DNA from: an uncultured virus (IMG/VR IMGVR_UViG_2897118514_000003)
Lineage: Duplodnaviria; Heunggongvirae; Uroviricota; Caudoviricetes
DNA: 64,000 nt
IMG/VR virus record: IMGVR_UViG_2897118514_000003
Location: 1-64,000 of that record
Reading direction: 5' to 3' (one strand)
Translations under genes and position numbers: made by a program
Notes under the pieces: generated by a model
The model's database searches: none
What the model was told of the DNA's origin: nothing
What the model saw: the letters and a program-made list of their open reading frames with translations, nothing else
Part shown: positions 5,532 to 62,381 of the stretch, in pieces
How the letters are laid out: each line of letters opens with the position of its first letter
Numbering within the stretch: position 1 is the first letter of the stretch

Positions 5532-5794
5532 CGACTCCCCTCCTCTTTCTTTAATTATTCTTGTCCTTTGCTCAACATATTCATCCCATATAGATCCGTT
5601 TATACAATAATTATCTTTCAAACTTTTTATTATTTCCTTATAGTCTGTATCCTCTTCCTTATTGTGTATTTCAATCAAAAACCTCAATAGCTTACCTTCA
5701 AGTGTTTCCTTATGTAAACCAAATAAGGTTTCCACTTACTCTCCGCTAATTTTATTTTCATTCTAAATAAAAGACCAATTTTATTTGGATTTAT

Positions 5795-6010
5795 TTATGT
5801 AATTTCATTTAAGTTTTCGTATTTAGTAAGCTCATCGATTACTCTTTCCAACTCAGAAATAGACATTTCACTGAAATTTGGTGCGTATCCTAAGACTTTA
5901 GCTAAAAACCACCGCTTTTCTTTCAGGTTATTAAAACCTAATCGTTTAAATTCTTTGGACAATTTTCTTCTCAACACAGGGAAATAACCTAGTGTAGTGT
6001 ATACGATCAA
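5795..6010 (-). CDS. Hypothetical phage protein
   Basis: 71 aa ORF with RBS AGGAGGT. Confidence 0.6.
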   Translation of the reverse strand: MIVYTTLGYFPVLRRKLSKEFKRLGFNNLKEKRWFLAKVLGYAPNFSEMSISELERVIDELTKYENLNEIT

Positions 6011-6182
6011 TTAAATTTACCTCCTAAAAAATCTGTTATTTTCTTTAAGTCATCATTATTCAAACATATCGAAACTCTCTTGTTGTGCCTTTTGTCTTCG
6101 ATAGTTATTAAGACATGATCTTTTCCTTTGTCAAAAGTAATTCTGTCTTCCTTAGGAAAAGTACGGCATTTGAAAACTTTTT

Positions 6183-6356
6183 TCATTGAAATAACCCTCC
6201 CCAAATCACTCCAGCAGCTAAAGAAGCTATAAAGACAGAAACAAATTTCATTATAATGAAGAATTTTATATGCTTTGTTTCATCCTCAGTTAAGTTCAAA
6301 TCTGATAAAGCGAATAAACCAAACATTATCAACAAAACCCAAGCTGTTACAATCAT
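6183..6356 (-). CDS. yotH: Small two-TM membrane protein, 57 aa
   Basis: [19 protein letters not shown]...GVIWGGLFQ read manually; size and position fit yotH. Confidence 0.65.
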
Positions 6357-6905
6357 CTACTTAGAACCTCTTCCAACTGTATATCCGCCCGTAATGTCAT
6401 TTAAGATCGTGCTGCTTGGGAACAGCTTTTCACTCTTACTATCATTATTTTTAGTGTAATTAATGAAATCATCGAACTGGATTAAATACACTCCGTAAGC
6501 TGTGTTATTCAATTTATCGATGGTATCGTCACTTGGTTTGGAAAACCAGCTTTCAGTACCTTGGCCATACACTTCAAAAATTTCAAGAATCTCGTCCTTA
6601 TACTCAAAATAAGCCAGCTTATTTTCAAATTCACATTTCTCATCAACTGGATTTCCTACATGATTTGTCGCATATTCCATCATTGAAGTAAGCATGTAAC
6701 CTAATTCAACATCCGAGAAACTTAGTTGAGGTTTAGGTGTTCCGTAATAAATATCTGCTTCATTTAGAGATCCCCTTTGATTAACTTCTTTAATGATCTC
6801 TTCGATAGCAGTGTAGCCTTCATGAATAATAAAATCTCTTCGCATCTGGTCTCTTCGTTTATATTCATCTAAGAAACTTGTTATCTTAAACTCTGTATTC
6901 TTCAT
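6357..6905 (-). CDS. Hypothetical phage protein
   Basis: 182 aa ORF with RBS AAGGAGGAG. Confidence 0.7.
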   Translation of the reverse strand: MKNTEFKITSFLDEYKRRDQMRRDFIIHEGYTAIEEIIKEVNQRGSLNEADIYYGTPKPQLSFSDVELGYMLTSMMEYATNHVGNPVDEKCEFENKLAYFEYKDEILEIFEVYGQGTESWFSKPSDDTIDKLNNTAYGVYLIQFDDFINYTKNNDSKSEKLFPSSTILNDITGGYTVGRGSK

Positions 6906-7311
6906 TTAACTCCTCCTTGTATAAACCGATTATTTCTTGCATTCGTTGAAAGAAAATAATAATGCAACCTCTAGCATCAAAGGGGTATTCGCAATCAATT
7001 TCAGCACTGGATATGTATATTTCATATTCAATGCTCGATATTAGTTGAGCACTATAAGGTAACTCGAATTGCAAACACCTTTTCAGTATAGGTAGTTGCT
7101 TATTGATAAAATTCAAGAACTTCTTCTCATACTCAGGAACCTGTTCATATATTTTGTTTACAAGCTCTTCAATTGTATCTGCTTGCACCTTGTAGAGATT
7201 CTCGAACAGTTTTTTGTTGATGTCCATCAATTGGTATAAAGTCTTAACTGTTTTATACTTACCGGTTAAAGTCACTCCCCACCAATCAAACCGCTCAACT
7301 GCGTTCTTCAT
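6886..7311 (-). CDS. Hypothetical phage protein
   Basis: 141 aa ORF with RBS. Confidence 0.65.
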   Translation of the reverse strand: MKNAVERFDWWGVTLTGKYKTVKTLYQLMDINKKLFENLYKVQADTIEELVNKIYEQVPEYEKKFLNFINKQLPILKRCLQFELPYSAQLISSIEYEIYISSAEIDCEYPFDARGCIIIFFQRMQEIIGLYKEELNEEYRV

Positions 7312-7523
7312 ATACGCATCCCCTTTATAAAATTAGGCAACTTCTATCTTAATTTTCCCACCCTTATAAAACGCAGAATTTTTATAGGATCTTCTTTCTA
7401 TCTCTAATTGTTGCACAGTTGGATATCCTCCATATCCTTTCCAGAAAACATCGTTTATGAAAAGGCGATAGTTCCATTTCAAATTGCTCCAACTCCTTCT
7501 TCTAAATGAAATCAACATTTTAT

Positions 7524-7715
7524 CTACTTCCAATTGTAGTTCTCCTTTTCTTTCTCTGAATCACCTATATGCGAAAGAATCCAATTATGATAACCCTCTT
7601 CTCCACAATTAGGGCAATCCATTTCAGATATAACCTTTAATGTGTTTATCATAGGATTTTTAGCAAACAAGTGATGATTGCATTTTCTACAAAAAAACAC
7701 AACTTCATTTTCCAT
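7524..7715 (-). CDS. yotC: Small zinc-ribbon protein
   Basis: 63 aa, CRKC...CPNC; synteny. Confidence 0.7.
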   Translation of the reverse strand: MENEVVFFCRKCNHHLFAKNPMINTLKVISEMDCPNCGEEGYHNWILSHIGDSEKEKENYNWK

Positions 7716-7898
7716 GTCTCCCCTTCCCTTCTGTATAAAATTAGAATTTTATTTAGTTGCCGTAAAGATAATCTTCAAAAATGCTATCGTAACATCTATC
7801 TTCTTCAACACCTGTTAATAATGGTTCACCATAGACAATCTCATTATCTGTTTTCATTTCAACATCCCCTTAATGTAAAAAAATCAAAATAATTGAAT

Positions 7899-9458: not shown

Positions 9459-9494
9459 AGCTCGTTACTCCTCTCCATAAAATACAGATTTTAT

Positions 9495-10379: not shown

Positions 10380-10639
10380 TGAATCACCTCCTTAAAGTTT
10401 GAATAAAATATTAGTTTTAAAGTAATTTTATTTTTACTCTAATTATGCATATTGAAGTCGTGTTGATTAACTTCATTTATCTTATCACCTAAAGGACTCT
10501 CGTGTCCACTGTTATTTTATTTTTACACTTAAAATCCTATAATACACTCTTGTTAAATAAACTTTAAAATGCTTGTACTAGGATTAAGACTTACAATTAT
10601 GCTATAATAATAGAAAATATTTGTAATGGAGTGAAAAAT

Positions 10640-15251: not shown

Positions 15252-15293
15252 TTATTAGCTCCTTTTAATTTAAATTTGATTAAAATTACCCTT

Positions 15294-15536
15294 TTATCGT
15301 AATTCCTTTAATAACTCATCAAGTTCATTAGGCTTAAAACCAACACTTCGGTTTACTTCTTCTCCCTGATCACTCAGCAGAATGGTTACCGGTACTCCCA
15401 TGACACCAAATCTTGCTGCTACTTCTGGTTCCTGTGTAACGTCCACTGTCTCAAAATGAATATCTGCTTGTTCTAAGTAATTGGACACCATTTTACATGG
15501 ATTGCAATTAGGCTGCTCTAATTTAATCAATCTCAT
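15294..15536 (-). CDS. yosR: Thioredoxin/NrdH-like protein
   Basis: 80 aa, CNPC active site. Confidence 0.9.
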
Positions 15537-19948: not shown

Positions 19949-20306
19949 TAAGTTGTACCTCCTGAATGATCTTCTGTAAGTCATGTTTCGTTCCACTAAG
20001 TTCAAATTTTAATAACAATGGTGTGTGGAACTTAGCTGAAAGCTTGTCTCCAGCTAAACCATAGTTATCACCCCAAACCTTGTTACCACTAACAGCAACT
20101 CCCCTTATTTTATTTTTATTCTTATTGATAAAACTCAAAGTCCTTTCAGGTACTTCCCCAAAGCCTATCGTATATGTAATATGTATGAACTCTTGAGTGA
20201 TGATCGTATCATCAGTTATTTCAATTGCCTCAATGTCTAACTCTTGTTGCAACGCTTTTACAAACCTTCTTACATTGCCAGTTTTACTCTCATATGTAAT
20301 GATCAC
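19911..20306 (-). CDS. nrdI: NrdI flavodoxin
   Basis: YESKTGNV, TYTIGFG, SGNKVWG. Confidence 0.95.
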   Translation of the reverse strand: MIITYESKTGNVRRFVKALQQELDIEAIEITDDTIITQEFIHITYTIGFGEVPERTLSFINKNKNKIRGVAVSGNKVWGDNYGLAGDKLSAKFHTPLLLKFELSGTKHDLQKIIQEVQLIDKHNTKVDQAQ

Positions 20307-20659
20307 TAATCGTTATAGGCTCCTGTAATTAATCTTGTAGTTGCACATTCAGCTTCATTTTCAACATGATTAAATACTTCTGATATCTCACGATTAATGT
20401 CGCCCATTTCCATGTAGCCCTGTGCCATACTTTCATATAAGGAACTCTTCTTAACTGGAACGTAATCATCTAGATTCTTTTCTAATTCAACAAATTGATT
20501 TCCCTGTTGGTCAGTTGCAATAATCTCTCCTTTTAATACAGGAAAAGATTGCCCATCAGCTAAATGAATATGAGTGTTCTCATCGGCTATTGTAAAGCTA
20601 ATAATGTTCTTCTTTTTTACATATTGTTGAGTTGGATCAATACGTCTAGCTGCCCCCAT
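20306..20659 (-). CDS. yosL: YosL, protein with a MazE-like C-terminus
   Basis: 117 aa; YESMAQGYMEMGDINREIS...ENEAE resembles the B. subtilis MazE tail and AimX. Confidence 0.85.
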   Translation of the reverse strand: MGAARRIDPTQQYVKKKNIISFTIADENTHIHLADGQSFPVLKGEIIATDQQGNQFVELEKNLDDYVPVKKSSLYESMAQGYMEMGDINREISEVFNHVENEAECATTRLITGAYND

Positions 20660-20709
20660 TTTACATCTCCTTATTTTTTGTTTTTATTTTGAATAAAGCT
20701 GTGATTTTA

Positions 20710-20910: not shown

Positions 20911-20942
20911 ATAATATCCTCCTCTTAATTTATTTTTATTCT

Positions 20943-21209: not shown

Positions 21210-21225
21210 CTTATTACATCATCTC

Positions 21226-21438: not shown

Positions 21439-21472
21439 CTTATACGTTTCCTTTCTCTTTAAAATCATCCTT

Positions 21473-21829
21473 TTAAAGTAATGAATAAAATCCCAGTTCG
21501 CTGACTGCCCCGCCAGCCATTGTTTTGAGCACTTTGAATTCTAATTTAACTGCCAAGTCTCCTGCCATGTTGAAATGAATTTTATTAATGTCCACCTTTA
21601 ACACCTTTGTTTCGCCCTCATAACTTGTCAATTTCATTTTAAGTGGACTTTTTATCCCCTCATTCAAATCAAACACCTTATATGCTGTTGAATTCTTACC
21701 AGTGTTTATAGTAATCCTGTCCTCATCCTCAACAGCTTCAATGTTCTGGTAGTGAAGAACAATTTTCGTTTCCTTCGGTAAATAATTATTAAATTTTTCT
21801 TTATAAACAGAGATTTCCTTTAAAATCAT
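21473..21829 (-). CDS. Hypothetical protein bracketed by junction palindromes 21460 and 21858
   Basis: 118 aa; stop codon is part of the palindrome arm. Confidence 0.7.
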   Translation of the reverse strand: MILKEISVYKEKFNNYLPKETKIVLHYQNIEAVEDEDRITINTGKNSTAYKVFDLNEGIKSPLKMKLTSYEGETKVLKVDINKIHFNMAGDLAVKLEFKVLKTMAGGAVSELGFYSLL

Positions 21830-21870
21830 ATCTGCCTCTCCTTTTGCAAAATTGGTTTAAAATAAAACTT

Positions 21871-21996
21871 TTATTTAGACTTATTGTCGTTTTGCAAAAT
21901 GGTGTCAGCAGGTAAAGTTGTAATTTTCATTTCGCCGATTGTTTCACTAGTTGATTTCTTTTTGAAAATAATTTTTGCAGCATTGACATCACTCAT
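21871..21996 (-). CDS. 41-aa protein (YosF-like)
   Basis: MSDVNAAKIIFKKK...NDNKSK read manually; stop in palindrome arm. Confidence 0.6.
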   Translation of the reverse strand: MSDVNAAKIIFKKKSTSETIGEMKITTLPADTILQNDNKSK

Positions 21997-23116: not shown

Positions 23117-23540
23117 TATCTTCCCTCATTGATGATTTTCTTTAATGCTTTTAGAAGCATATTTAGTGATTTCTTGTCACCCATTTCATCCCGATTGACT
23201 TCAATAAAGTGAACTGCTGACGTTAATTTATCCTGCATTTCAGTTGCTCCTTTCACGATAAAAATTGAATTTTATTTAGACATTACTGATAATCAATAAA
23301 ACCAAGCCGGCTATGAATGACATTCCAGCTATAACTAATAATCCAAAAGCAATTTGAGGTTTTATTCTCCTTTTCGATCCATATGTATCTATTGATACAA
23401 GCCCAATCAACAAAAGACCGATGATTTCAAGGACATTAATTGCAAATTGCACTGTGCCACTCCTTATTATTTGTTTTGATTTGTCACATACTGCGCTTAC
23501 CCGGGAAATTATGAATATTTTCTTCTGACTATTTCCTCTT

Positions 23541-23713: not shown

Positions 23714-23770
23714 GTTCATTGCTCATCTCTCCATTCTGGATAAAAGGAATATTTTATAGTAATTTTATTT

Positions 23771-23962
23771 TTATTCTAATTGTAACTTCAAAAATTTTAG
23801 TGTCTTTTCTAATTTCATGGCCATACAATGTTCCAAACAATTTTTCTGCAATTCTTCACCGCATTCTTTATGTACCGGAAATTCTTTATAATCCTTGTCG
23901 TCAGTAATTCTTATGTAATAGACAGTCCCGTCAATATGCTCTTTACATTTTGCGCACCCCAT
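23771..23962 (-). CDS. Small Cys-rich protein
   Basis: 63 aa, CAKC...HKEC; follows a promoter. Confidence 0.6.
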   Translation of the reverse strand: MGCAKCKEHIDGTVYYIRITDDKDYKEFPVHKECGEELQKNCLEHCMAMKLEKTLKFLKLQLE

Positions 23963-25082: not shown

Positions 25083-25125
25083 TCGATCTACTCCTCTAAT
25101 TTTATATTTGAGTAAAAGACAAATT

Positions 25126-25911
25126 TTATACAGTTTGGAATACTTGCTGCTCATGCTCCTTAATCCATTCTAATGAACGTCCATAATATTGATCAGGATT
25201 GTCTTTATTCCATTCAAAACAAATGTAATTCCTATTTGTGTTTATACAGGCAATCGCTGCAGTTCCAGCTCCACTACAATTATCTAAAACCGTGTCGCCT
25301 TCATTTGAATATGTTTTAATAATTTTTTCGTAAAGCTCTACGGGTTTTTGAGTCGGGTGAAACTTTCTGGGATCATCGTTATTCATTACAGGTATTCTCC
25401 AAACACTTGTTGGGTATCTGTCAGTTTGTCCGCCACCTGATATTCCTGATTTTGTTTCTCCGTAGTTTGTTCCATCACTCGTGTGCTTTGTATATGTATT
25501 TGCAGGCTTATGCCCAGTTGTTTTCTGTGGATTATAAGTCGGTAATTTTTTATAGAAAACTAAGATTTCCTCATGTGATCTCAATGGCATTTTTTTAGCA
25601 TTCAAAAAACCTGTGCTTTTATTTTTCTCCCAAATGATATCGTATCTGTACATCTTAGGGTTGCTCGCAATAAGCAATGAAGAGAAAGGTTTTACAGCTG
25701 TTAAAACAATTGCGCCATTGTCTTTAATAACCCTTTTGTATTGTTTCCATAGCTCTTCCAAAGGCAAAATTTCATCCCACTTATTTCGATTTGTTACACC
25801 ATATGGTAGATCGCGTATAATCAAATCAATTGATTTATCTGGAACACGATTCATTCCTTTATTGTGTTCATTACTTAAACAATTTTCATTGAAAAGCTTG
25901 TTCAACTCCAA
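25126..25911 (-). CDS. Beta-class N4/N6 DNA methyltransferase
   Basis: DLPY, HPTQKP, VLDNCSGAGT. Confidence 0.9.
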   Translation of the reverse strand: MELNKLFNENCLSNEHNKGMNRVPDKSIDLIIRDLPYGVTNRNKWDEILPLEELWKQYKRVIKDNGAIVLTAVKPFSSLLIASNPKMYRYDIIWEKNKSTGFLNAKKMPLRSHEEILVFYKKLPTYNPQKTTGHKPANTYTKHTSDGTNYGETKSGISGGGQTDRYPTSVWRIPVMNNDDPRKFHPTQKPVELYEKIIKTYSNEGDTVLDNCSGAGTAAIACINTNRNYICFEWNKDNPDQYYGRSLEWIKEHEQQVFQTV

Positions 25912-25946
25912 TAATCCAACTCCTTTTTCTCTTTAAAATTGATCTT

Positions 25947-26756
25947 TTATTCAGTTGCTATGTAATCCTTCAATCGTTCGTTTGCAATATCACAATATTC
26001 CTTGCTAATCTCCGTACCTATGTATTTCCGATTATTTAAAACTGCCATCTTAGCTGTTGTTCCACTACCCATAAAAGGATCCAAAACGATGTCCCCTTCA
26101 TTTGACCAAGATAGAATGTGATCTTCGGCCAGACGTTCTGGGAAAATTGCAGGGTGCTCAAATGCAACTTTATCTAGTGTTGATTTTTGATGCCCGTTAG
26201 GGATCCTCCAGATGTTGAACCTTACACCGAATTCTTTCAGTAAGTTCTGTTTGTTATGCCTTACTTTTTCGCCATCCATTTTTCTATAATGACCTTTAAT
26301 ATGCTTTTTACCGTTATACCATTTGTTTTTTCTGTCTGAAATTAAATTTATAGTTTTTGGCTTTCCTTTTGAAAAGACAAACATGTACTCGAAAATTTGA
26401 TAATATCTGTTCTTATCTGGAAAGCTTATACTGTCCTTTTCATAAATCATGGTGTCATGAAGGTTAAAACCTATCTCTTTAAAATACAATGCCTGCTTAA
26501 AACTTGTGCCTGACTCGGATCCGTTATGTGTTTTATCTCCTATCACCCATACAACAACTCCGCCATCTTTGGTAACCCTATATAATTCTCTAGCTGTTGC
26601 TTCAAAATTGAATGAATACCCATTATATTTTCTTAAATCGTCATAAGGCGGTGATGTAACGGTTAAGTCAATAGAGCAATCACCCATATTCTCCCTCATG
26701 AATTGGACGCAATCTATATTATGTATTTTGTTTAAATCCTTTCCGTTTATATCCAT
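25947..26756 (-). CDS. Beta-class DNA methyltransferase (SPPY, probably N4-cytosine)
   Basis: TSPPY, HPAIFP, VLDPFMGSGTT. Confidence 0.9.
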   Translation of the reverse strand: MDINGKDLNKIHNIDCVQFMRENMGDCSIDLTVTSPPYDDLRKYNGYSFNFEATARELYRVTKDGGVVVWVIGDKTHNGSESGTSFKQALYFKEIGFNLHDTMIYEKDSISFPDKNRYYQIFEYMFVFSKGKPKTINLISDRKNKWYNGKKHIKGHYRKMDGEKVRHNKQNLLKEFGVRFNIWRIPNGHQKSTLDKVAFEHPAIFPERLAEDHILSWSNEGDIVLDPFMGSGTTAKMAVLNNRKYIGTEISKEYCDIANERLKDYIATE

Positions 26757-26783
26757 CTCTCCTTTCTCTATAAAAGAGATATT

Positions 26784-27302
26784 TTAAAGTAATTTTCGTT
26801 CAATCTCTTCCCAGTTCATAACACGAATAAATCTGTTGTCATTCCTGTTATGGGGAGCATCAAATAGAATCTTCATTCCTTCAAATGATTCTAAGTTATG
26901 TATTCCGTCATCTATCATGATGTCTGCTTTAATTATGCTTTTATTGCCACAAAGCACTACATTGCTATGTGGGATAAATGAAAAATGCTCAGTGAGCCAT
27001 TCAAGCTTTGCTTTAAGGGACTCTGGATGGTTTGTTGCAGTAGTCACAACATACACTTCATATTTCTTCATCAGCTCTTTTACCACTCTTTGGCTACCTT
27101 CTATAACATCAAGATTTCTGAACAAATCGTAATCTAAATGTCTATAAACATTGTTGTTGGTATTTGTATATTTTTTAATGTCCCAACATAGTATTTCTTC
27201 CTCTTTGAGAAAAGGATCATCGTGTGTGTTAATGTAAGCTACCCAATCACTTAGTAAATCAGCTAATACCTGATCCATGTCAATCGCAATTACTTTTTTC
27301 AT
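26784..27302 (-). CDS. yorS: 5'(3')-deoxyribonucleotidase (HAD)
   Basis: 172 aa; IDMDQVLAD, MIDD. Confidence 0.9.
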   Translation of the reverse strand: MKKVIAIDMDQVLADLLSDWVAYINTHDDPFLKEEEILCWDIKKYTNTNNNVYRHLDYDLFRNLDVIEGSQRVVKELMKKYEVYVVTTATNHPESLKAKLEWLTEHFSFIPHSNVVLCGNKSIIKADIMIDDGIHNLESFEGMKILFDAPHNRNDNRFIRVMNWEEIERKLL

Positions 27303-28182: not shown

Positions 28183-28833
28183 CTAATTAATAATTGAAAC
28201 CGTTCCATGTTGTCTCCCGAAGTTAATTGCATCATGTTCATTTGATACCAGCAAGTCCACTTTATTGCCAACAATCGCTCCACCTGTATCAATGGCTATG
28301 GCCTTAAATGAACTCCCTCCTACTTTTATTAATACTACGGAGTTAAGTGGAATAATACTTGGATCTGTAGCTATTACTCTATAACCTTTGTAAAAAATTG
28401 ATTGTGTTACATCTACGCCAGTTTTGGTTCGACCGGTGCAGCCTTCGGTACAGTTAGCAACATATGCACTAAATTCGATATCTAGTGTCTTAGCATCATC
28501 ATTTTTCACATATATAATTTTATTTTTATTCTTTATTTGTTTATTCTTGTTTTTACCCTCACCTCCCTTCTTGATACTTTTCTTTTTCACTGGTTTGGGT
28601 TTGATAATAGCTGCGTTAAGAATATCATCTCGCCGCTTTTCTTGTTTAGCTTTCTGCTTCTTAGAAACTTCATCGAACTTATTTAGCACCTGATTCTTGT
28701 GTTGTGGTAAGTTGATTTGTTTTGGTTTTCCATAAAATGATTCTTTTATTGAGTTATGATTGTTTCCGGTGTCTAAATGATGTTGTTCGAAATTTATGTA
28801 TGAAAAGGTTGCCAGTGGGATTAAAATCATCAT
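28183..28833 (-). CDS. yorM: 3D-domain cell-wall protein; true start may be further upstream
   Basis: IATDPSIIPL, AIDTGGAI, VDLL 3D motifs. Confidence 0.8.
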   Translation of the reverse strand: MMILIPLATFSYINFEQHHLDTGNNHNSIKESFYGKPKQINLPQHKNQVLNKFDEVSKKQKAKQEKRRDDILNAAIIKPKPVKKKSIKKGGEGKNKNKQIKNKNKIIYVKNDDAKTLDIEFSAYVANCTEGCTGRTKTGVDVTQSIFYKGYRVIATDPSIIPLNSVVLIKVGGSSFKAIAIDTGGAIVGNKVDLLVSNEHDAINFGRQHGTVSIIN

Positions 28834-28907
28834 AGCACACTTAGTTTTTATTGTATATAACTTAATTTTATTTTTATTCTTTATTTCTTTATAGATAAGG
28901 CTTCCTC

Positions 28908-35719: not shown

Positions 35720-37234
35720 TCATCCTGCTTTTATATTCAATTTCTCAACTGTGATTAATTCATTGTCAAGATTTGTTGTGAAACAGTCCTTAATCCGCAT
35801 GTTGCCCATATTGATATGAGAAAAGACTTTAACTTTGTCATACTCATTTCCCCTATTTTTAAATACATGTGTAACAAAATTTGGCTCTGGATAAAATCCT
35901 TCTTTTAAGATTGGATCAATTGCATCCTTCTCTTTTTTACTTAAAGGAAGAATTATCATTGCAGCATCTGTTTTATCTGCAATGGCCTTACTTCCTCTCA
36001 AGTAAGAAGCATCTATTACTTGTCCTTTTAACCATGCTTCTTTCCAATCACCATTCAACTGAGTTGCACTCATCATATAGACATCGTATTTGTTACATAA
36101 GCCCTTTAACTTATCCGACATAAGTAAAAGAATTTGGTCTTCCCTCAAGTTGACCCCACTTTTTTTGCTCATCTCTGAAAAAATGGTTACTGATGAGTGA
36201 ATATAATCGAAATAAACGTACTCTACATTGTTTTTAATGACGTTCTTTTCAATTGTTCTTTCAATCTCCTGAATATTAAAATCAGGCAGATGTTCGAACC
36301 ATATGTTAGACTCTTGAAGAACTTTAGCAGCCTTACGCACAAGTTGTTTTTCTTGTTCATTGATTGTGTTTCTAAGGATTTTTTTCTCTTCTACACCACT
36401 AATGTAGGCAAGTGCTAAGCTTTGCAATTCTTCGGCCATCATTTCTGTTGAAATAACCGTAGAACTTTCACTCCATGGGTTTGATACCCATTCCTTCTTT
36501 TTAGGATCATAAAGTTCGGTTGCACTTAAGCGACAAGCGTCAGCGACCATGTTTCTTGTTTTACCGCCACCTGTAATACTTGAGCGCAGATAGAACTTTT
36601 TCTTCCGTGATCCACGAAAAATTGAGGTGAGCATTTCGCTATTTAATGGAACTCCAATATCCGGGGATTCTTCGAATGAATCCAATAATTCATTAATACC
36701 TTCTCCCCCTTGGATTCCTACACTTTCTGATGAAGTTCTGAATTTTTCTTTTATGTCTACAATCTTCATTTCATAAGCTGCTAAAATCTCATCAATCGAC
36801 TTCTTATCAAACTGTTCTTGCATCTTTTCCTGTTCTTTTGGGTCAATCAGAGATTCATCATATATTTCCTTAATATCGAATCCCAATCCATCCATTTCTC
36901 TAAGCAGACTAAACTTTTTTAATCTTTTATAGTGGTAATCAAAGTTTTCGACAACTGCCAACTCTTGAATTCTTTCTATATATTCAAGACCGTTATTATC
37001 ATGGAAAATTTTATACTGAATATCGTAATCCTTTAGATATCCATCTATTTCAACCTCATTCAATACTTCAGTTCCTTGATGAAATAGATTGCTCATAGCA
37101 AAAAACAATATTGAATGAAACCTTGAAGGAAAATCATCCGAAGTTATCTTATATTTATTGCTCTCTGACAAGATTGTGGGATCTTTTAAAATGCTCCCTA
37201 AAACTTGAATTATTGCCTGTTTGTCTTGTAGCAA
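35720..37234 (-). CDS. yorI: DnaB-like replicative helicase
   Basis: 504 aa; GGGKT, STEM, FDYI, TQLN, KNR. Confidence 0.9.
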   Translation of the reverse strand: MLQDKQAIIQVLGSILKDPTILSESNKYKITSDDFPSRFHSILFFAMSNLFHQGTEVLNEVEIDGYLKDYDIQYKIFHDNNGLEYIERIQELAVVENFDYHYKRLKKFSLLREMDGLGFDIKEIYDESLIDPKEQEKMQEQFDKKSIDEILAAYEMKIVDIKEKFRTSSESVGIQGGEGINELLDSFEESPDIGVPLNSEMLTSIFRGSRKKKFYLRSSITGGGKTRNMVADACRLSATELYDPKKKEWVSNPWSESSTVISTEMMAEELQSLALAYISGVEEKKILRNTINEQEKQLVRKAAKVLQESNIWFEHLPDFNIQEIERTIEKNVIKNNVEYVYFDYIHSSVTIFSEMSKKSGVNLREDQILLLMSDKLKGLCNKYDVYMMSATQLNGDWKEAWLKGQVIDASYLRGSKAIADKTDAAMIILPLSKKEKDAIDPILKEGFYPEPNFVTHVFKNRGNEYDKVKVFSHINMGNMRIKDCFTTNLDNELITVEKLNIKAG

Positions 37235-39748: not shown

Positions 39749-40129
39749 TCATTTATTAATTTTATTTTTATTCTTATTATTTCTATAATTAGACTTGCTG
39801 CTAAACTTACAATCTCTAATACCAAGTAGTTTGTTTAGCTCTATGTATCTCTTTTTAGGAAAATTCCAAGGCTCTGGATCGCCTTTAATGTTTCTTACTT
39901 TAATGATCGTATTAAGTCTTACAGTAATCTTGAGATTTCCATATGAATATGTCTTAGAAATAAAACCCCTCTCAACTCCTTGAGGTCTGAATTCCTTCAC
40001 CAACATTACATTCCTTGTTAATTTTCTTCTAGCCTGGTCTTCTTCGATGTCATAATTCCTTTTAACATCATTTCTATAGGCTTCGATTGCAGCTGGTTTA
40101 ATTTTCAATATCTTCAATTCCTTTTTCAC
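39749..40129 (-). CDS. yorE: Basic hypothetical protein
   Basis: 126 aa; first gene after the repeat-linked promoter. Confidence 0.65.
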   Translation of the reverse strand: MKKELKILKIKPAAIEAYRNDVKRNYDIEEDQARRKLTRNVMLVKEFRPQGVERGFISKTYSYGNLKITVRLNTIIKVRNIKGDPEPWNFPKKRYIELNKLLGIRDCKFSSKSNYRNNKNKNKINK

Positions 40130-40163: not shown

Positions 40164-40213
40164 ATCTTACATCACCCTCACATTATCGTCAATAGTAATT
40201 TTATTTTTATTCT
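40164..40213 (-). promoter_or_regulatory. Sigma-A promoter of the replication operon with upstream repeat element
   Basis: AGAATAAAAATAAAATTACTA-TTGACG-N17-TAAGAT. Confidence 0.75.
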
Positions 40214-40889: not shown

Positions 40890-41011
40890 GTTGTTTATCC
40901 CCCTATAGTAAAAAAGAATCATTAATTCAATAACATATTACCATGAAGGGAAAAACTTAACAATTCCTTTTGAAATTAAAATAAAATGATAATTTTATTG
41001 GGTTATAGGTA

Positions 41012-42618: not shown

Positions 42619-42652
42619 TTAAACATCTCCCTGACTAGTTAAAATATCGTTT

Positions 42653-42924
42653 TTATTGAGATTCTTTTCTTATCCATTTTCTAACCTTCACTTCTTTTAA
42701 CTCCACTTCATAACAATCAACTTGATCTTCAAATTCCCAAGGGCTTTCATACTGGTTTTCAGTTGCGCCTTTGCTATAGAAAGTTTCAAAAAAGCGACCC
42801 TGATTGAGAACACAATTCTATAGTGAATGCTCCACCTAGACGTGTCAGTGATCTCTTCTAAAATTGAGGATTCCGGCAGTCCCAATTCATTTACCATGTA
42901 ATCTTTGTCTAATTTAATTTTCAT
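42653..42924 (-). pseudogene. Phage protein gene with a 1-nt frameshift near 42805
   Basis: ...SRWSIHYRIVFS continues in another frame as QGRFFETFYSKGATENQYESPWE...RKESQ, ending at the TAA of palindrome 42640. Confidence 0.65.
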
Positions 42925-43801: not shown

Positions 43802-43850
43802 TGGAAATTCCCCTTTTTAATTTTATTTTTATCTTTATAAAATTTCTGTT

Positions 43851-44075
43851 TTATCTAGATCTTCTAATTTTATTTTTATCCAACAAATCAATTATGTAAG
43901 TCTCATACATGTCATCCCAATAAGGGTCTGTTCTTGCTATGTATTTCTTTACTCTTCCGTTCTCCTCAATCTTGAAGGTTTGCCCCTTTTGAATATCATT
44001 GAACTTTTTCTTTTTCCATATTCCCTTGATCAACACTTCAACTTCTTTAACCTCAACTGTTGCCTGCTGCATCAC
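43851..44075 (-). CDS. yoqX: Hypothetical protein
   Basis: 73-74 aa; synteny. Confidence 0.65.
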
Positions 44076-45525: not shown

Positions 45526-45562
45526 CCTTCCCTTCTATAAAATAACTATTTTATTTTGATCT

Positions 45563-47358: not shown

Positions 47359-47397
47359 TTAACTATCCTCCTAAGTTATTAAAATAAAAACTATCTT

Positions 47398-47799
47398 TTA
47401 TCTAAACTCTAATGGCTCATTCAACTCAAATGCCAATCTACACCCATTGATAAACTGTTTTAAAGTTTCTATGTATCTATTAGGTAACATACAATCATGA
47501 GGCATTTCCACATTTGCCAACTCTTCTGCATAGGGTAAGATGGCTTCTAATTCCTCTGCAACAACTTTACACATTTCAGGTGTAATTACACCATCACAAT
47601 CTGAATGACCGAAAAACTCTGTTAGCCCCTTATGGGTTATTGTTGAATAGCCTTTGCCAAAGTACCAATAGCCATCCTTAAATTTTTGGTTATCATGTGG
47701 TGGCCAACTACCTCCAATTGATTTTAATAAAAATCTTCTAAGATTATTGAATGACGAGTACGTCCCATCGAATGCTCCGTGTGTTACATATAAACCCAT
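47398..47799 (-). CDS. Hypothetical protein bracketed by palindromes 47385 and 47823
   Basis: 133 aa; HSDCDG motif. Confidence 0.7.
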   Translation of the reverse strand: MGLYVTHGAFDGTYSSFNNLRRFLLKSIGGSWPPHDNQKFKDGYWYFGKGYSTITHKGLTEFFGHSDCDGVITPEMCKVVAEELEAILPYAEELANVEMPHDCMLPNRYIETLKQFINGCRLAFELNEPLEFR

Positions 47800-47922
47800 G
47801 TATCAAGTCCTCCAATTCTGTTTAAAATCACGATTTTAATTTAACTTTAATGTGTATCATCTTGAGAAAATCCCCTTTAATTGGTAAACTCATACCTAAC
47901 TTACGTAAGAGTGGGTGATTCC

Positions 47923-48541: not shown

Positions 48542-49188
48542 TTATTTTATTTTTATTCTTTAAAAGTTTATATGTATTCCATCCGCAGCCATCAAATATG
48601 CTTATATCCGCTCCAAGATGCCACTTAAACCAAACTAAGTTAAACCAGGCTGTATCAATTATGTATTTGATGTATCCTATGCTAACGACATCCTTTCAAC
48701 TAATTTTTCAATGAATTCTTCTTTTCTTTATCAATATCTTTCTTAAGCATATCCTCAATTTCCTCCAATTTATCAACCACTTCAAATGTAAATTCATCAT
48801 CATTGGTATAGCGAATCTGATCACTTGCTTTCTTTACAAGCTCAAGCGCAACTTGTCTCGGATCTTTATAGTTCTCACTCAAATTCCCACCTCATTTCAT
48901 TGAAATAATCCTTTTATTGTGATTCTGTAGCCTTAATTAAAAATCCCATTCTTTCCTTCTTTGTTTTAGTTAAATCTCTGCTTTCTTTTAAGATGTCCTG
49001 AAACAAGTGAAATGGAATCGGGTTTAAACCAAGGCTTCTGACTTTATTACAATAGCCTCCGTAATAGGCTTGCTCGTATTCCCTCTGCTCTGATCTAAAA
49101 TTAAATGGATTCATTGGCTGTCTCCCTTCCTCTAAATATCTTAATATCATTCTTTCAAACTAAAATGATTTTTTTATTTTGTTTTTCA

Positions 49189-50496: not shown

Positions 50497-50793
50497 AGTT
50501 CAGCTCCTTTCTCTTTAAAACAGTCTTTTTATTCAGTGTAAGAATGCTTGACAGACCCACTTGTCTACACCATCATAAATTTCGACTTCGCAGTGTTGCC
50601 CTTTTTCATATTTCCAAATTCCTTGATATTCACCATTAAGAACATCGAATTCTTTATTTTCTTCATTAACCACTTGTGAGTCCGTTAGCTCACACATATA
50701 GTCTCCAAACTGGACAACGACCGCTTCCAAAGTTTTGTTTCTGTCATATATCACTCGGATATCTTTCACAATACAACAGCTCCTTTTTCAATT

Positions 50794-51432: not shown

Positions 51433-51484
51433 TGATCCCCTCCTGTATTTCATTTAAAACTTCAATTTTAATTAGATTCTGTTT

Positions 51485-51688: not shown

Positions 51689-51906
51689 TTTTCCATCTAC
51701 TTTCTTTTAATTTTTCTTATTTCAAAACGCCATTTGTATGCATCTGTACCAATTCGATTGAATAGCTCTTTTCTTGCTTTTGTTTTTGAAGGCTCCTCAA
51801 TTCCAAAGCAAAACTTTCGTGATCTAGTACTGTAAACTCCGTATAAAACATTATTCTCCATCTTCCATCCTCCGATTCTCTTTAAAATTTTACTTTTATC
51901 TAGAAT

Positions 51907-55215: not shown

Positions 55216-55265
55216 CTGTTCATCTCCTTTACTTAATCTAATTCCCTTTAAAATGCATCTTTTAA

Positions 55266-56451: not shown

Positions 56452-56768
56452 GTGATATCCCCCTCCAATTTGAATCTCGATAAAACTTACATTTTATTTT
56501 GATTCTTAATGATTTCATTCTTTCTCTCTTCATTTGTAAAAACAATATCCTTTAAAATAAACTGTATTTCTTCGAGGTTGTCCTTAACAAAGTCCAAATC
56601 ACCAATGGTCTTTCTTATTTCATCCTTATTCAAGTTATGTAAAGCTCTGTTGCATGAAGCAAAAACCTTTAAAAACTTTTTCATGACCATGTTTTTTATT
56701 TCTTTATTCTGCGGATCATTAATCAAATAAAAGCGACATCTCCTTTCTTTAGTATCTTTATGATTTGA

Positions 56769-56818
56769 ATTATACAGTTCATGGGATCATGTGTAAATAG
56801 TAATTTTATTTTTATTCT
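56769..56818 (-). promoter_or_regulatory. Sigma-A promoter with upstream repeat element
   Basis: AGAATAAAAATAAAATTACTA-TTTACA-N17-TATAAT. Confidence 0.75.
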
Positions 56819-56844
56819 TAATTTGGTTAAAAAACAAGCTTTAC

Positions 56845-57845: not shown

Positions 57846-58075
57846 AAATCGCTAGGAATTTCGCCCTAGCGAACCTCCCTGTACCCTTTTTAGGGTATAG
57901 TCTTATTTTACCACAAATTACCCCTGTTGTCTTTGTCTACTTTTGTCGAATTCTGAAAATACGAACAAAATCCTACCATCTAATATTTAAATGTCACGAT
58001 TCAGCTCATATTTATGTTAGTTATTTTATTTTTATTCTTTTTGTTATGTAAGATTAATCCCTATCAAGGGATTAA

Positions 58076-59065
<990 letters not shown>

Positions 59066-60412
59066 CTAACGAACATCAATTTCATCATAGAAAACTTTTT
59101 TCAGTTTTTTCTTCATAGCAGCATTTAATTGTTCTTCATAATTTCTGCTGCTTAACTCCTTGAATGTCTTACCTTTATCAAAATCAACCTGCTGTAGTAT
59201 CGTTGCTAGTTTAGCTAGTGGTGTGCCATTCTCTTGCATTTTTTTGGCCAAATAAATGTATCCATAAAATACAGCATTATAGTTAATGTATGATCTGTTT
59301 CTTGACTCGCTAAGATCATCTTCAAGGAAATCATCTGGAAAAGCATAAAAAAGCTCAGCAAAGAAGTCCCTTAAATACTTGGACAATTGAATAGCGTCTC
59401 TCCGTGAATTGATCTCAAAAGCATCGTCAATTGCTTCAGAAAGTGTATAATAAGTAACCAAGAATGGACTACTCATACCAATTTCACTTTGTACACTAAT
59501 TTTGTCTTTGAGTTCACTATTATATTTAAGTTGCTCAACAATAGTGGAAGAATAGCGTTTTTGACCAAGTTCTTCAATCCTTGATTTCTCAACAGGATTT
59601 ATTGTATTCATTTGGGCAAAATGACGTTTTGCTTTTTCTTCAGTATAATTTAAGATATTCAAAATAAAGGTTTGATCTAATTCAGGAGCTTCAGTAATAG
59701 CTTTAACAACTCCAGATATTCTATGGTAACCATCTAGAACATCAACTAATGTACCCTTAGTAACAGTTAAGCTTAGGTCGCTTGGATTGTACTCAATTTC
59801 TTCATCCTCATCTGATGTGCCAAACCGTGCATTAAATGTAAACATAGACACGATTAAGTCGCCCTTTTTAAAAAGTTCTTTAATCTCTTCAACTGATTTA
59901 GGATTAGTCTTTGGCACAGGTATTAAGCTTCCCTTAATGAATCTGCCTTCCCGTTGAGTATTATAGTTGTATTGTAGTATTGAGCTATTATATAGTTCAC
60001 TTAATTCTTTCGCAGTAATTGAAGTCACATAATTATCTTCATTTATTTTTATTACGTTTTTAAATGTATAAGGAAGTGTTAGAACCTCTTCACCGGCAAA
60101 AATTCTTCCGCCCTCTAACTCCTTAGCCAGCCTTGGTGGAAAATAACTCAAAGGGTCTAAAGCGGCTACGCCAGTAAGTTTGTGTAGTTCTTTAGAGAAA
60201 ATATAAACTTCCTTTTCATTCAAGCGTTGAATGTTATTATCATTGTTATTCAAAATTTCTTGTACATAACCAGGCAGCGTTTTATACTGCGCTCCCATGA
60301 TTGCTTTTAATTCCTTTACTTTTCTGGAATCATGTTTAATATCAGATGCAACTTCTTCTATTTTATTTTTAAGCTTTAAAAGCTTATCTGTTGTCAACAG
60401 ATCCTGAACCAC
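59066..60412 (-). CDS. yopQ: ParB/DndB-like repressor-operon protein (YopQ/SroE)
   Basis: 448 aa; QR, LDGYHR motifs; synteny. Confidence 0.8.
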   Translation of the reverse strand: MVQDLLTTDKLLKLKNKIEEVASDIKHDSRKVKELKAIMGAQYKTLPGYVQEILNNNDNNIQRLNEKEVYIFSKELHKLTGVAALDPLSYFPPRLAKELEGGRIFAGEEVLTLPYTFKNVIKINEDNYVTSITAKELSELYNSSILQYNYNTQREGRFIKGSLIPVPKTNPKSVEEIKELFKKGDLIVSMFTFNARFGTSDEDEEIEYNPSDLSLTVTKGTLVDVLDGYHRISGVVKAITEAPELDQTFILNILNYTEEKAKRHFAQMNTINPVEKSRIEELGQKRYSSTIVEQLKYNSELKDKISVQSEIGMSSPFLVTYYTLSEAIDDAFEINSRRDAIQLSKYLRDFFAELFYAFPDDFLEDDLSESRNRSYINYNAVFYGYIYLAKKMQENGTPLAKLATILQQVDFDKGKTFKELSSRNYEEQLNAAMKKKLKKVFYDEIDVR

Positions 60413-60496
60413 AGTATCACCTCACACATAATCATATTAAATTTATCATTACATTAACATACAAGTAAAGCATTTATATGATTATTTATATCACTT

Positions 60497-61567
60497 TTAT
60501 TTTAATTCTAAAAATTTTTTGAGCTTTTTTAGAGTGGAAACATCACAATCTAAAAAGAACTGTCTAAACTGGTCTAATGTAACAGTATCCAGGAAATCAA
60601 TATCTATATCTTGATCAATTATAACACCAGGATCTTGAGAATAATCTCTTTCCTTATTTAGATAATGATCATTTAGCACATTGATGTTTTTATGTCCTGA
60701 AAATGCTGCCACCTTTTTAATGTCTCCGCTTACATTATAAGAAAAATTAGTGGCTGTATTACGTAAACTGTGTGGCCTAAGATTTCTTTCCTGTGGAATA
60801 TTTAACACTCTGCAAACTCTGTGCCACATATCATTAATTGAGTCTACAGTTAATTTATGAAAGATCAGCTCATGCTCACCATACTCATTCTTGAGTGTTA
60901 ACAACTCCTCATAAAAGGAGCTAGAAATACCTACTGGTCTCGCTTTCTTCTGTTTAGTCTTCTTGAAATTGACTAAGTAACAATCGTGCTTCGATGAATA
61001 CGTTATGTCTTCCCATTTTACTCGTAAGACTTCTGATTTTCTTGCTCCTGTGCGTACACTAAATAAAATAAAGAGCTTTTTCATTAACCTGTTCTGTCTC
61101 TCATGGATAAATGCAGCTTCTGCAAACTCTTCAGCTTCAGGAATCCCCTCAAATGAACCAGCTGGATTCTTCTCTGTCGGCAATGGTCTAAAATTAAAAA
61201 CGCTTGATTCACAGTCGTGTTCTGACTCCAAGGATTTAATTAAACTTTTCAGTGCTGCGATTTTATTATTAATCGTAGCATTTGTATTATTTTTATTTTT
61301 AGCCAAATAAGTCCTATAATCCATTAAATCATTCTTTTTAATTATTACATCTTCTTCAGTTAAATATTCAATATCCTTACCAACTTGATAATTAAAGAAT
61401 TCTCTAATATGCCTTTCATAGGTGGTTCTAGTATTAGACTTTTCAATAAATGCTGATTTGTCATCCCTATTTCTCAAATCTAATTCATCAAACCATCTAT
61501 TTATGTCATTAAAAATGGAGTAATCCCTAACAGATGGTGTTTGCTTTTTCACTTCCAAGGTTTCCAC
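60497..61567 (-). CDS. yopP: Tyrosine recombinase-family protein (YopP/SroD) with a complete catalytic set
   Basis: TGARKSE, KTK, PHSLR, SGH, HY. Confidence 0.85.
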   Translation of the reverse strand: METLEVKKQTPSVRDYSIFNDINRWFDELDLRNRDDKSAFIEKSNTRTTYERHIREFFNYQVGKDIEYLTEEDVIIKKNDLMDYRTYLAKNKNNTNATINNKIAALKSLIKSLESEHDCESSVFNFRPLPTEKNPAGSFEGIPEAEEFAEAAFIHERQNRLMKKLFILFSVRTGARKSEVLRVKWEDITYSSKHDCYLVNFKKTKQKKARPVGISSSFYEELLTLKNEYGEHELIFHKLTVDSINDMWHRVCRVLNIPQERNLRPHSLRNTATNFSYNVSGDIKKVAAFSGHKNINVLNDHYLNKERDYSQDPGVIIDQDIDIDFLDTVTLDQFRQFFLDCDVSTLKKLKKFLELK

Positions 61568-61568
61568 C

Positions 61569-61766
61569 TCATTTAATTTTATCCATTAAATAATTATCTA
61601 ACTCATACCACAATTTTAACCAATCAGTATCTTGCTTAAAGCTTCTTAGCAGCATAATATTTGCATTGCAGATTTCTATTTGCTTCATTAAGTCATAACC
61701 GTCTAGCAACTTAATCAAAATAGATAAATTCAATAAAACACCTACTTTAAGTATATACTTGCTCAA
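61569..61766 (-). CDS. Small sro-operon protein (third position, SroC-like)
   Basis: 65 aa; position only. Confidence 0.5.
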   Translation of the reverse strand: MSKYILKVGVLLNLSILIKLLDGYDLMKQIEICNANIMLLRSFKQDTDWLKLWYELDNYLMDKIK

Positions 61767-62008
61767 TGAACAGCTGAGTATTGTTTTGTCGCCTTAATCT
61801 TGTCCCCTACATTTATCACAGGTTTACCAGTCAGTTCCTCAAAAAACTCATTTTCAAACCCTATCCATTCATCATTATGAATTTCTTCCTGCAAGTAATT
61901 AAGATATGCTTCTGATATTCCTGGTTGCTCTAAGAATTTCAAAACAATCATATGCTTTTTCCAGACTTTCTTTTTATTTTCCTCAGTATAATATTTATTG
62001 TTAGTCAT
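61763..62008 (-). CDS. Small sro-operon protein (second position, SroB/phi3T_93-like)
   Basis: 81 aa; RBS AAGGAG; position. Confidence 0.6.
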   Translation of the reverse strand: MTNNKYYTEENKKKVWKKHMIVLKFLEQPGISEAYLNYLQEEIHNDEWIGFENEFFEELTGKPVINVGDKIKATKQYSAVH

Positions 62009-62024
62009 TTTATTTTTATTCTCC

Positions 62025-62231
62025 TTATATGCATTTAATTGTATTATTTTGATCCTTAATAAGCATATGCTCTTTATGATTTCTTCTCATTGTAGTAACA
62101 TTATTAGGTGTAAACACATCTGGATCTTCCATATGAAGATTAACACGAGTAAAGCTCTTAAGTTGTTTTATGTATTGATACTGTCTTAATGAAGTAACCT
62201 TATACTCTTCGTTTTTATTTGATTCTTCCAT
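62025..62231 (-). CDS. Small sro-operon protein (first position, YopM/SroA-like)
   Basis: 68 aa from ATG 62231; follows promoter TTGCAT-N17-TATAAT. Confidence 0.55.
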   Translation of the reverse strand: MEESNKNEEYKVTSLRQYQYIKQLKSFTRVNLHMEDPDVFTPNNVTTMRRNHKEHMLIKDQNNTIKCI

Positions 62232-62381
62232 AGTCCCATCTCCCAACAACGTTATCTTATGTATCTTCATTATATCCGTTGCCAACAGATTATGCAATAA
62301 TTAATTTTATTTTTATTCTAGACAAATAAACACATGTGCTCGATGTGTTTAAAATGTCCATTTTATTTAGTTTCATTCTGC

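Follow-up and report, generated by a model that had tools for sequence, protein, structure and literature searches.

The 64,000-nucleotide stretch of DNA analysed here (the window) is the first 64 kb of the 124,254-bp genome of an SPbeta-like Bacillus phage (IMG/VR record IMGVR_UViG_2897118514_000003), which is ~96% identical to phi3T where the two genomes are alignable. The genes of its 72-kb early region lie on the minus strand, and among them are a replication module with a helicase-like gene, a ribonucleotide-reductase region, and the sro-type genes. Many of the junctions between genes carry a short palindrome, TAAAA-N6-TTTTA, consisting of two inverted 5-bp arms around a six-base centre. 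We refer to this 16-mer as the dyad and give its centres as read on the gene (minus) strand.

The window contains 27 exact copies of the dyad, against 0.98 ± 0.99 in 100 dinucleotide-preserving shuffles (maximum 4), none of which reaches 27. The spacing is strict: for spacers of 0 to 14 nt, the copy numbers are 1, 1, 1, 0, 3, 0, 27, 0, 1, 1, 1, 2, 1, 2 and 2, and the swapped order TTTTA-N6-TAAAA occurs once. An earlier note on this DNA had listed 25 copies, estimated that about one would be expected by chance, and stated that the spacers are exactly 6 bp long and all different. These statements proved accurate (no copies at N5 or N7; 27 distinct centres among 27), and the two copies that had been missed, at 28733 and 35892, both lie inside long open reading frames (ORFs). 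Genome-wide there are 35 copies, 30 in the early region and five in the late region.

The arms are all-or-none. Under a first-order Markov null, the early region should hold 1.2 exact, 24.7 one-mismatch and 216 two-mismatch copies; it holds 30, 16 and 183, i.e., one-mismatch copies are not enriched. Those at 20694, 48901 and 56828, named in the earlier note, do exist, as members of this unenriched class, of which five of the 16 are intergenic. Compensatory arm variants are not in excess either, with 7 of the 183 two-mismatch copies remaining palindromic. When 5-mer palindromes were scanned, only TAAAA-N6 and its one-base-out reading, ATAAA-N8-TTTAT, lay far above expectation.

The logo of the 27 window copies is symmetric on the gene strand. 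Upstream, T, C and T stand at -6, -5 and -4 in 16, 17 and 15 copies and A stands at -1 in 20; downstream, A, G and A stand at +19, +20 and +21 in 20, 17 and 25. The first base of the centre is T or G and the last is A or C, each in 22 copies. This gives the consensus TAAAA-K-N4-M-TTTTA with a weaker outer TCT/AGA, a weakly extended 28-bp dyad of roughly 11+6+11, and the geometry of two inverted arms around a 6-bp centre is indeed of the tyrosine-recombinase type, as had been proposed. In each arm, the inner 5 bp never vary. Outer triplets occur in ~60-90% of copies, are absent in a distant phage (G004, introduced below), and may partly reflect upstream stop codons and purine-rich downstream leaders. 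Folding is negligible: the minimum free energy (MFE) is ~0 for the 16-mer and averages -1.4 kcal/mol for the 28-mer (mean -1.95 with DNA parameters), and the bases that separate the arms from TCT/AGA are paired in just 7-15 of the 27 sites. No family of the Rfam 15 covariance models reached its gathering score at any dyad in the window. Conservation that is sequence-specific and strand-symmetric, around a free middle, points to a symmetric protein acting on double-stranded DNA, and the symmetric logo would fit a dimer. A sigma-A promoter inside the dyad was dropped as an explanation on inspection. By eye, no -35/-10 pair lies within the 16-mer, and promoters, where present, adjoin it.

The position of the dyads between genes is equally regular. 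Of the 27 copies, 25 are intergenic and span the interval from a stop codon to the next ribosome-binding site. Among minus-strand genes called with a 40-codon ORF rule, the TAA of the arm is the stop of the upstream ORF at nine exact sites, and the stop ends 1 nt before the arm at four more. The ten arm stops reported earlier are therefore these nine plus the one-mismatch copy at 48901; of seven further stops said to lie within 2 nt, the four were found and the rest were not recovered under this rule. A start codon could be called at 24 sites and lies 12-46 nt downstream of the dyad in 23 of them. The dyad and the Shine-Dalgarno sequence are essentially the whole intergenic gap. It had also been remarked that no copies occur at junctions of the replication module, which holds for the junctions, although the copy at 35892 lies inside the helicase-like gene, where it may be due to chance or to coding constraint. 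In SPBc2, dyads stand just upstream of the sigma-A-type promoters of yorE and aimR, and the same arrangement is found in G004. The idea of a YonO promoter was dropped, with five of the 35 sites in the late region and none at the late operon start in SPBc2. In four runs from public RNA libraries, considered over 20000-29999 and available as contigs that give no transcript starts, ends or strand, multi-kb contigs of related phages run through the dyads at 23259 and 23741; contigs of this origin also stop matching the window phage at dyad edges (loose ends at 23757, 25133, 25934 and 26770).

We compared eight SPbeta-like genomes, i.e., the window phage and seven relatives (phi3T, SPBc2, SPR, Goe11, Goe12, Goe13 and BUCT083). 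All relatives have the dyad, at 34 to 37 copies each (34 in SPBc2, 35 in SPR, 34 in Goe11, 36 in Goe12, 37 in Goe13 and 34 in BUCT083), and a backward-pattern control yields 0-1 copies in SPR, Goe11-13 and BUCT083. The two palindromes annotated in the SPBc2 record are both other than the dyad. Six-base centres are collinear across the eight genomes, and no centre occurs twice within one genome. Of the 27 centres found in the window, ten are present in every one of the seven relatives. Among the 31,356 cross-genome pairs of the 268 sites, 654 have the same centre, where 33.9 are expected.

Around a given centre, the neighbouring genes often differ between relatives. According to BLASTN, both flanks are alignable in 170 of the 654 same-centre pairs, only the upstream flank in 115, only the downstream flank in 122, and neither in 247; an unrelated flank is one that is not alignable as DNA, and diverged protein homologues would count as different. 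Thirty-three centres are present in at least four genomes, and 21 of these have at least two flank types on both sides, with up to seven combinations of upstream and downstream flanks among the eight genomes. The GGATGA dyad (21460) has five upstream and five downstream flank types among seven genomes, and the AGACTG dyad (50516) is bordered immediately on either side by sequence unrelated to phi3T. In 192 of the 654 pairs, the ungapped match stops within 12 nt beyond the dyad on both sides, just as it does for random pairs of sites. Flank identity has a background of 0.70-0.78 in unrelated AT-rich DNA, and BLAST-based tests were used instead. Shared 14-mer "islands" with unrelated flanks (22 at sites, 468 elsewhere) are mostly chance AT-rich matches or copies of a second repeat described below, and are too noisy to use.

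The ends of homology blocks, defined on the union of BLAST blocks between the window genome and each relative, were then related to the dyads. Of the 323 block ends in the early region, 72 (22%) are no more than 20 nt away from a dyad, compared with 2.3% of uniformly placed positions. One or more block ends are found at 20 of 24 junctions with a dyad and at 29 of 57 dyad-less junctions of at least 25 nt (Fisher p=0.007), in agreement with the earlier suggestion that the sites coincide with the borders of exchanged blocks. When only junctions of 25-60 nt are considered, the counts are 14 of 16 and 9 of 22. Block ends fall at the two edges of the 16-mer, from -10 to 0 when the downstream side is shared and from +15 to +28 when the upstream side is shared, and the dyad thus belongs to both neighbours. 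Identity is 0.97-0.99 through the 16-mer and drops just outside it on the non-anchored side; at the TTTGTC dyad (25113), e.g., homology begins 1-8 nt before the dyad in eight comparisons. Across dyads with both flanks alignable, the step in identity averages 0.074 (21 pairs, 10 loci), against 0.028 at random positions (p=0.003).

We lean towards the view that the dyad is a joint that is read by a protein and has its own address, at which related phages or prophages exchange modules, and that the joint itself would direct the exchange. A putative symmetric protein would recognise the dyad as double-stranded DNA at the borders of accessory modules. Each border holds its own six-base centre, inherited in the same order by all relatives, and the genes on either side would be swapped as blocks ending at the 16-mer edges. 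Exchange could follow one of two routes: strand exchange by a Cre/Xer-like recombinase (YomM or YopP/SroD) requiring identical centres, or short-homology recombination on the identical 16-28 bp, in which case the arms would be kept for protein binding. It seems to us rather unlikely that a conserved Cre/Xer-like recombinase, either YomM, whose expression accompanies that of the late genes, or YopP/SroD, binds the invariant arms of ~35 sites and exchanges strands only between matching centres, and the remainder of the joint hypothesis falls to short-homology recombination. If a match of centres between partners were required, this would explain why the centres are collinear and never duplicated.

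The two recombinase-fold proteins of the phage, YomM and the YopP-like protein, keep a catalytic tyrosine and are unproven candidate readers. The yomM gene, at genome positions 101108-102109, lies beyond the window among the tail genes, with a dyad 4 nt past its end; of the 80 IMG/VR loci examined, 43 have the YomM stop inside a TAAAA-N6-TTTTA or no more than 25 nt before it. YomM is 64-99% identical in all relatives. Its family comprises 711 matches, with R180, K217, H281, K284, H309 and Y319 invariant in 32 aligned members. Its sole sequence matches in the PDB are to Cre (E ~0.002), and an AlphaFold2 model (predicted local distance difference test score 84.8) has XerA, Cre and Tn1549 Int as best Foldseek matches. 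We found no paper on YomM in a full-text literature search. The YopP-like protein has a full R..K..HxxR..H..Y pattern, with motif positions assigned by eye in the translation. The DndB-type YopQ/SroE-like protein is a weaker candidate, and the master repressor YopR/SroF/MrpR was ruled out as the reader, as it binds a different, known box. The sro-type genes of the window phage (58076-61567) belong to the phi3T type and have 30-37% identity to their SPbeta counterparts.

YomM homologues in IMG/VR led us to five distant phages, G001 to G005, that differ in their content of dyads. There are 45 copies in G004 (YomM identity 59%; control 6), 16 in G002 (56%; control 3), 13 in G005 (61%; control 4), 3 in G001 (53%; control 2) and none in G003 (55%; control 2). 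The copies of G004 directly follow stop codons and precede a ribosome-binding site or a promoter of the TTGACA type, and none of their centres is shared with SPbeta. At the thresholds used, few proteins (23 of 198 predicted) are detectably common to G004 and the window phage. Among the proteins shared with four of the distant phages, YomM is the best conserved, at 53-59% identity; DNA polymerase and terminase reach 21-33%. The arms are identical across the two Sro types and in G004, which makes the immunity repressors unlikely readers; whatever protein reads the dyad has to be conserved in phages of either Sro type as well as in G004. No homologue of SroD, SroE or SroF (YopP, YopQ, YopR) was detected in G004 at the thresholds used, in a record that is 66% complete. 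Given the same incompleteness, phylogenetic profiling found no window-phage protein that is present in the motif-bearing G002 and G004 and absent from the motif-less G001 and G003. A conserved host factor, such as the Xer pair (CodV/RipX in Bacillus), is also possible.

The dyad is not the operator already described in these phages. SPBRE is the operator bound by MrpR/YopR/SroF, the recombinase-fold master repressor, for which affinity purification of chromatin followed by sequencing (ChAP-seq) gave ten peaks at promoters (PMC10516654), and SroF binds a box of 24-26 bp as a monomer (bioRxiv 10.1101/2025.11.27.690993). In SPBc2, the ten named MrpR target promoters share a AAATACAAAWAATATGTATA-like box between -35 and -10 that is unrelated to the dyad. 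We thus rejected the identification of the dyad with SPBRE, the box being a different one and the ten peaks comparing with ~34 dyads (PMC10516654). Both are repeated intergenic elements of the same phages; SPBRE is non-palindromic, ~15-26 bp long, found at ~ten promoters and bound by a monomer (PMC10516654; bioRxiv 10.1101/2025.11.27.690993). Our full-text searches returned no description of the dyad, though Brady et al. 2023 or Lazarevic et al. 1999 may mention it, and the available part of a review of the SPbeta life cycle (PMC8270828) does not.

A number of results weigh against the joint hypothesis. With the intergenic gap taken up by the dyad, every replacement that keeps genes whole is bound to end close to the dyad's edges. 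Of random intergenic positions, 14% are no further than 20 nt from a dyad, compared with the 22% of block ends, and dyad-less junctions are often boundaries too, given that 29 of 57 carry a block end. The identity step at dyads is not significantly above that at non-dyad junctions (0.048, p=0.09). Where flanks are less than 90% identical, the centre is kept no better than the flank, with all six bases identical in 0.42-0.50, in a comparison that is ungapped and confounded by indels. As regards the candidate proteins, YomM has a lysine where the tyrosine-recombinase family usually has its second catalytic arginine; its homologues at 53-55% identity occur in the phages that do not have the motif (G001 and G003); and the position of its gene among tail genes counts against it as the reader. 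YopP, YopQ and YopR come in two types with 30-37% identity, but the arms do not differ between phages of one type and the other. Laboratory hybrids tell against the hypothesis as well. We mapped parental switches with parent-specific 21-mers in four phi3Ts x SPbeta hybrids (MT366946-8 and PP526179; parents phi3Ts and SPBc2), three of which come from an evolution experiment (bioRxiv 10.1101/2020.05.06.055103). In the four hybrids, all switches are located within stretches common to the two parents, 29 bp to 18.2 kb in length, and no switch is restricted to a dyad. Several large parent-shared blocks do begin or end exactly at dyads, e.g., one of 1,404 bp that runs from the GATCAA dyad to the TTTGTC dyad. 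Of the 16 junctions in the evolution experiment, 15 were reported to lie in homology and one, near yosA, was called "non-homologous" (bioRxiv 10.1101/2020.05.06.055103); a dyad, that with centre TATTCC, lies there.

The dyad could be a regulatory or boundary operator, i.e., a roadblock, insulator or silencer for a dimeric phage or host protein, much like the stoperators of mycobacteriophages, with the mosaic joints as a by-product: after replacement of neighbouring genes, the conserved 16-mer would be the sole common sequence left and would offer microhomology. We regard this as possible but doubtful. It would account for the symmetric logo, the strict spacing and the all-or-none arms, whose sharpness suggests first-order purifying selection, and for sites that fill stop-to-ribosome-binding-site gaps inside long operons or stand just upstream of sigma-A-type promoters in G004 and at yorE and aimR of SPBc2. 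Two further points in its favour are that, by the identity-step test, boundaries are as frequent at other junctions, and that the laboratory hybrids did not use dyads. SPbeta-family repressors reportedly bind multiple sites. An operator is harder to reconcile with arms that are identical in G004 and across Sro types that are 30-37% identical, and with the MrpR peaks, which lie at SPBRE promoters and not at the ~34 dyads (PMC10516654). Moreover, a regulator that ignores the spacer leaves the 247 same-centre pairs with unrelated flanks unexplained, unless homology-directed exchange is added.

Two further readings were put forward in the earlier note, and both fare worse. The first is integron- or pdif-like shuffling of one- to three-gene cassettes by a centre-tolerant tyrosine recombinase, which the 11+6+11 geometry, the presence of recombinase-fold genes and the variable gene content between fixed sites would suit. 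We consider it very unlikely. Insertion, excision or shuffling of cassettes between sites was not seen: genes keep their centre, no centre is duplicated within a genome, and the eight genomes contain one class of two-site-versus-one-site indels, in Goe11 versus Goe12/13 at centres CTAATA and TTCTAA, which is the one site-to-site-like event in its favour. A few flanks are joined to different centres, but flank-homologous pairs nearly always have the same centre, and the 44 exceptions are mostly 1-nt variants or the inverted centre at 40982. The latter reads TTATCA in the window phage, phi3T and BUCT083 and its exact reverse complement, TGATAA, in SPBc2, SPR and Goe11-13; as the upstream flank can still be aligned with Goe11-13 without a change of orientation, it seems that the centre was inverted where it stands. 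The symmetric arms are unlike XerC/XerD sites, the site is unlike a long imperfect attC, and no cassette circles or empty sites were seen. Genes tied to their own site, together with a single indel class, argue for exchange between like-numbered joints and not for movement of cassettes. The second is an RNA hairpin for mRNA processing, 5' or 3' protection, antitermination or translational coupling. Dyads do lie in transcribed gaps just 5' of the Shine-Dalgarno sequence, with upstream stops overlapping the left arm, and the RNA-library contigs that run through 23259 and 23741 fit this weakly. Nevertheless, the negligible hairpin, the conservation of sequence rather than pairing, the strand-symmetric logo and the lack of Rfam families at the sites make it highly improbable.

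Comparison with known systems places the dyad among phage mosaic-boundary elements, while it differs from each of them in a defining feature. The PeSL cassettes of T4-type phages are likewise short conserved intergenic elements present in many copies in the accessory ("hyperplastic") regions of a large phage, and insertions, deletions and replacements between relatives start and stop at them, as they do at the dyad (Arbiol et al. 2010, PMC2839356). PeSLs consist of a sigma-70-like promoter and a terminator stem-loop, recombine mutually and yield mini-circles (PMC2839356). The dyad is without promoter or stable stem-loop; it is a strict palindrome with a copy-specific centre and almost no site-to-site events. 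The arms of pdif sites are asymmetric, with a XerC and a XerD side, unlike the symmetric arms of the dyad. The pdif sites and dif modules of Acinetobacter plasmids are also many small recombinase-type sites that flank adaptive accessory genes, and they share with the dyad two arms round a 6-bp centre (Mindlin et al. 2019, PMC6449649). Dif modules occur in different plasmid contexts (PMC6449649). Dyads instead keep their own centre and position, with the genes tied to the site. The attC sites of integrons are long imperfect inverted repeats of variable sequence, unlike this strict 16-mer with invariant 5-bp arms.

Like lox and FRT sites, the dyad has inverted arms round an asymmetric centre. 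Lox has 13-bp arms and an 8-bp spacer and occurs once per P1 genome; both loxP and the dyad have palindromic arms for one protein, while the dyads are ~35 natural sites with different centres. In their distribution, dyads recall the stoperators of mycobacteriophage L5 and cluster A, mosaic temperate phages in which ~20-35 copies of one short site occupy narrow gaps between genes, often in contact with a stop or start codon. Unlike the dyads, which are symmetric and identical across two immunity (Sro) types, stoperators lack symmetry, follow the direction of transcription, are recognised by the immunity repressor and vary with the immunity group.

Dyads, second-repeat copies and genes discussed in the text, with positions in the window; relatives are the seven other SPbeta-like genomes.
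Feature	Position	Strand	Centre	Remarks
Junction dyad	5768..5783		TTGGTC	centre not shared; 1-nt variant TCGGTC in 7/7 relatives
Junction dyad	7736..7751		TTCTAA	same centre in 7/7 relatives
Junction dyad	9478..9493		TCTGTA	same centre in 2/7 relatives
Junction dyad	10404..10419		CTAATA	same centre in 7/7 relatives
Junction dyad	15281..15296		GGGTAA	arm TAA is upstream stop; same centre in 7/7 relatives
Junction dyad	21460..21475		GGATGA	arm TAA is upstream stop; same centre in 6/7 relatives
Junction dyad	21858..21873		GTTTTA	same centre in 7/7 relatives
Junction dyad	23259..23274		TTCAAT	same centre in 7/7 relatives
Junction dyad	23741..23756		TATTCC	same centre in 7/7 relatives
Junction dyad	25113..25128		TTTGTC	same centre in 7/7 relatives
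Junction dyad	25934..25949		GATCAA	same centre in 6/7 relatives
Junction dyad	26771..26786		TATCTC	same centre in 2/7 relatives
Dyad inside yorM-like ORF	28733..28748		GAATCA	1-nt centre variants in relatives
Dyad inside helicase-like ORF	35892..35907		GAAGGA	same centre in 3/7 relatives
Junction dyad upstream of yorE-like promoter region	40982..40997		TTATCA	same centre in 2 relatives, reverse complement in 5
Junction dyad	42640..42655		ACGATA	same centre in 4/7 relatives
Junction dyad	43838..43853		CAGAAA	1-nt variant in BUCT083
Junction dyad	45538..45553		TAGTTA	1-nt variant TATTTA in relatives with homologous downstream flank
Junction dyad	47385..47400		GATAGT	same centre in 7/7 relatives
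Junction dyad	47823..47838		TCGTGA	centre absent from the 7 relatives; homology ends at edge in 5 comparisons
Junction dyad	49161..49176		AAATCA	same centre in 1/7 relatives
Junction dyad	50516..50531		AGACTG	same centre in 7/7 relatives
Junction dyad	51455..51470		TTGAAG	same centre in 1/7 relatives
Junction dyad	51883..51898		GTAAAA	same centre in 6/7 relatives; 7 flank combinations in 7 genomes
Junction dyad	55249..55264		GATGCA	same centre in 7/7 relatives; 7 flank combinations in 8 genomes
Junction dyad	56481..56496		TGTAAG	same centre in 5/7 relatives
Junction dyad	62350..62365		TGGACA	same centre in 1/7 relatives; 1-nt variant in phi3T
One-mismatch intergenic copy	20694..20709			possibly decayed
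One-mismatch intergenic copy	48901..48916
One-mismatch intergenic copy	56828..56843
Second repeat	5749..5762	-
Second repeat	20107..20120	-
Second repeat	23762..23775	-
Second repeat	28517..28530	-
Second repeat	28865..28878	-
Second repeat	39759..39772	-
Second repeat	40198..40211	-
Second repeat	43820..43833	-
Second repeat	43867..43880	-
Second repeat	48544..48557	-
Second repeat	56803..56816	-
Second repeat	58023..58036	-
Second repeat	62007..62020	-
Second repeat	62304..62317	-
YopR/SroF/MrpR-like master repressor gene	58076..59047	-		Pfam MrpR_N_CB, MrpR_C_cat
YopQ/SroE-like gene, DndB-type domain, weaker candidate reader	59066..60412	-		Pfam DndB, E=3.1e-11
YopP/SroD-like tyrosine recombinase gene, candidate reader	60497..61567	-		Pfam Phage_integrase, E=1.6e-15
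Group I intron RF00028	19023..19238	-		lone Rfam match in the window, 91 bits; ribonucleotide-reductase region

The second repeat is directional, RATAAAAATAAAAT (AAGAATAAAAATAAAATTA-like), with 24 copies at no more than one mismatch against 1.28 expected. Genome-wide, 22 copies are on the gene strand and three on the other, and the repeat is present in all seven relatives. Its copies precede either a TTGACA-like -35 box, by 5 nt, or a Shine-Dalgarno sequence, by 2-4 nt, often sharing a junction with a dyad (the table gives examples of the repeat), and it may be a promoter-proximal (UP-like) or leader element. The distant phages have repeats of their own. In G003, the palindrome ATTAT-N4-ATAAT occurs 39 times against 3.4 expected, with 26 copies in the first 6 kb; in G004, a box TTATAATTTAATATAA lies over the -10 region of ~20 TTGACA-type promoters, and in G002, ATAATTAAATTAT lies over the -10 region of promoters, as in G004. 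These palindromes are probably repressor operators of those phages.

Clean exchange of modules at gene borders in mosaic temperate phages has so far mostly been ascribed to chance and selection. SPbeta and phi3T belong to a model family of Bacillus subtilis phages, a tractable and harmless system in which two or three proteins can be named as candidates and the question can be put to a direct test. If the dyad is a regulatory boundary element, it would be a missing component of SPbeta gene control. If it directs exchange, it would be a dedicated mechanism of phage evolvability and provide a ready set of orthogonal recombination sites. Should recombination be centre-matched, co-resident phages or prophages would trade the modules lying between corresponding joints while leaving the order of their own genomes intact, which would make the system a natural equivalent of cassette exchange with heterospecific lox sites.

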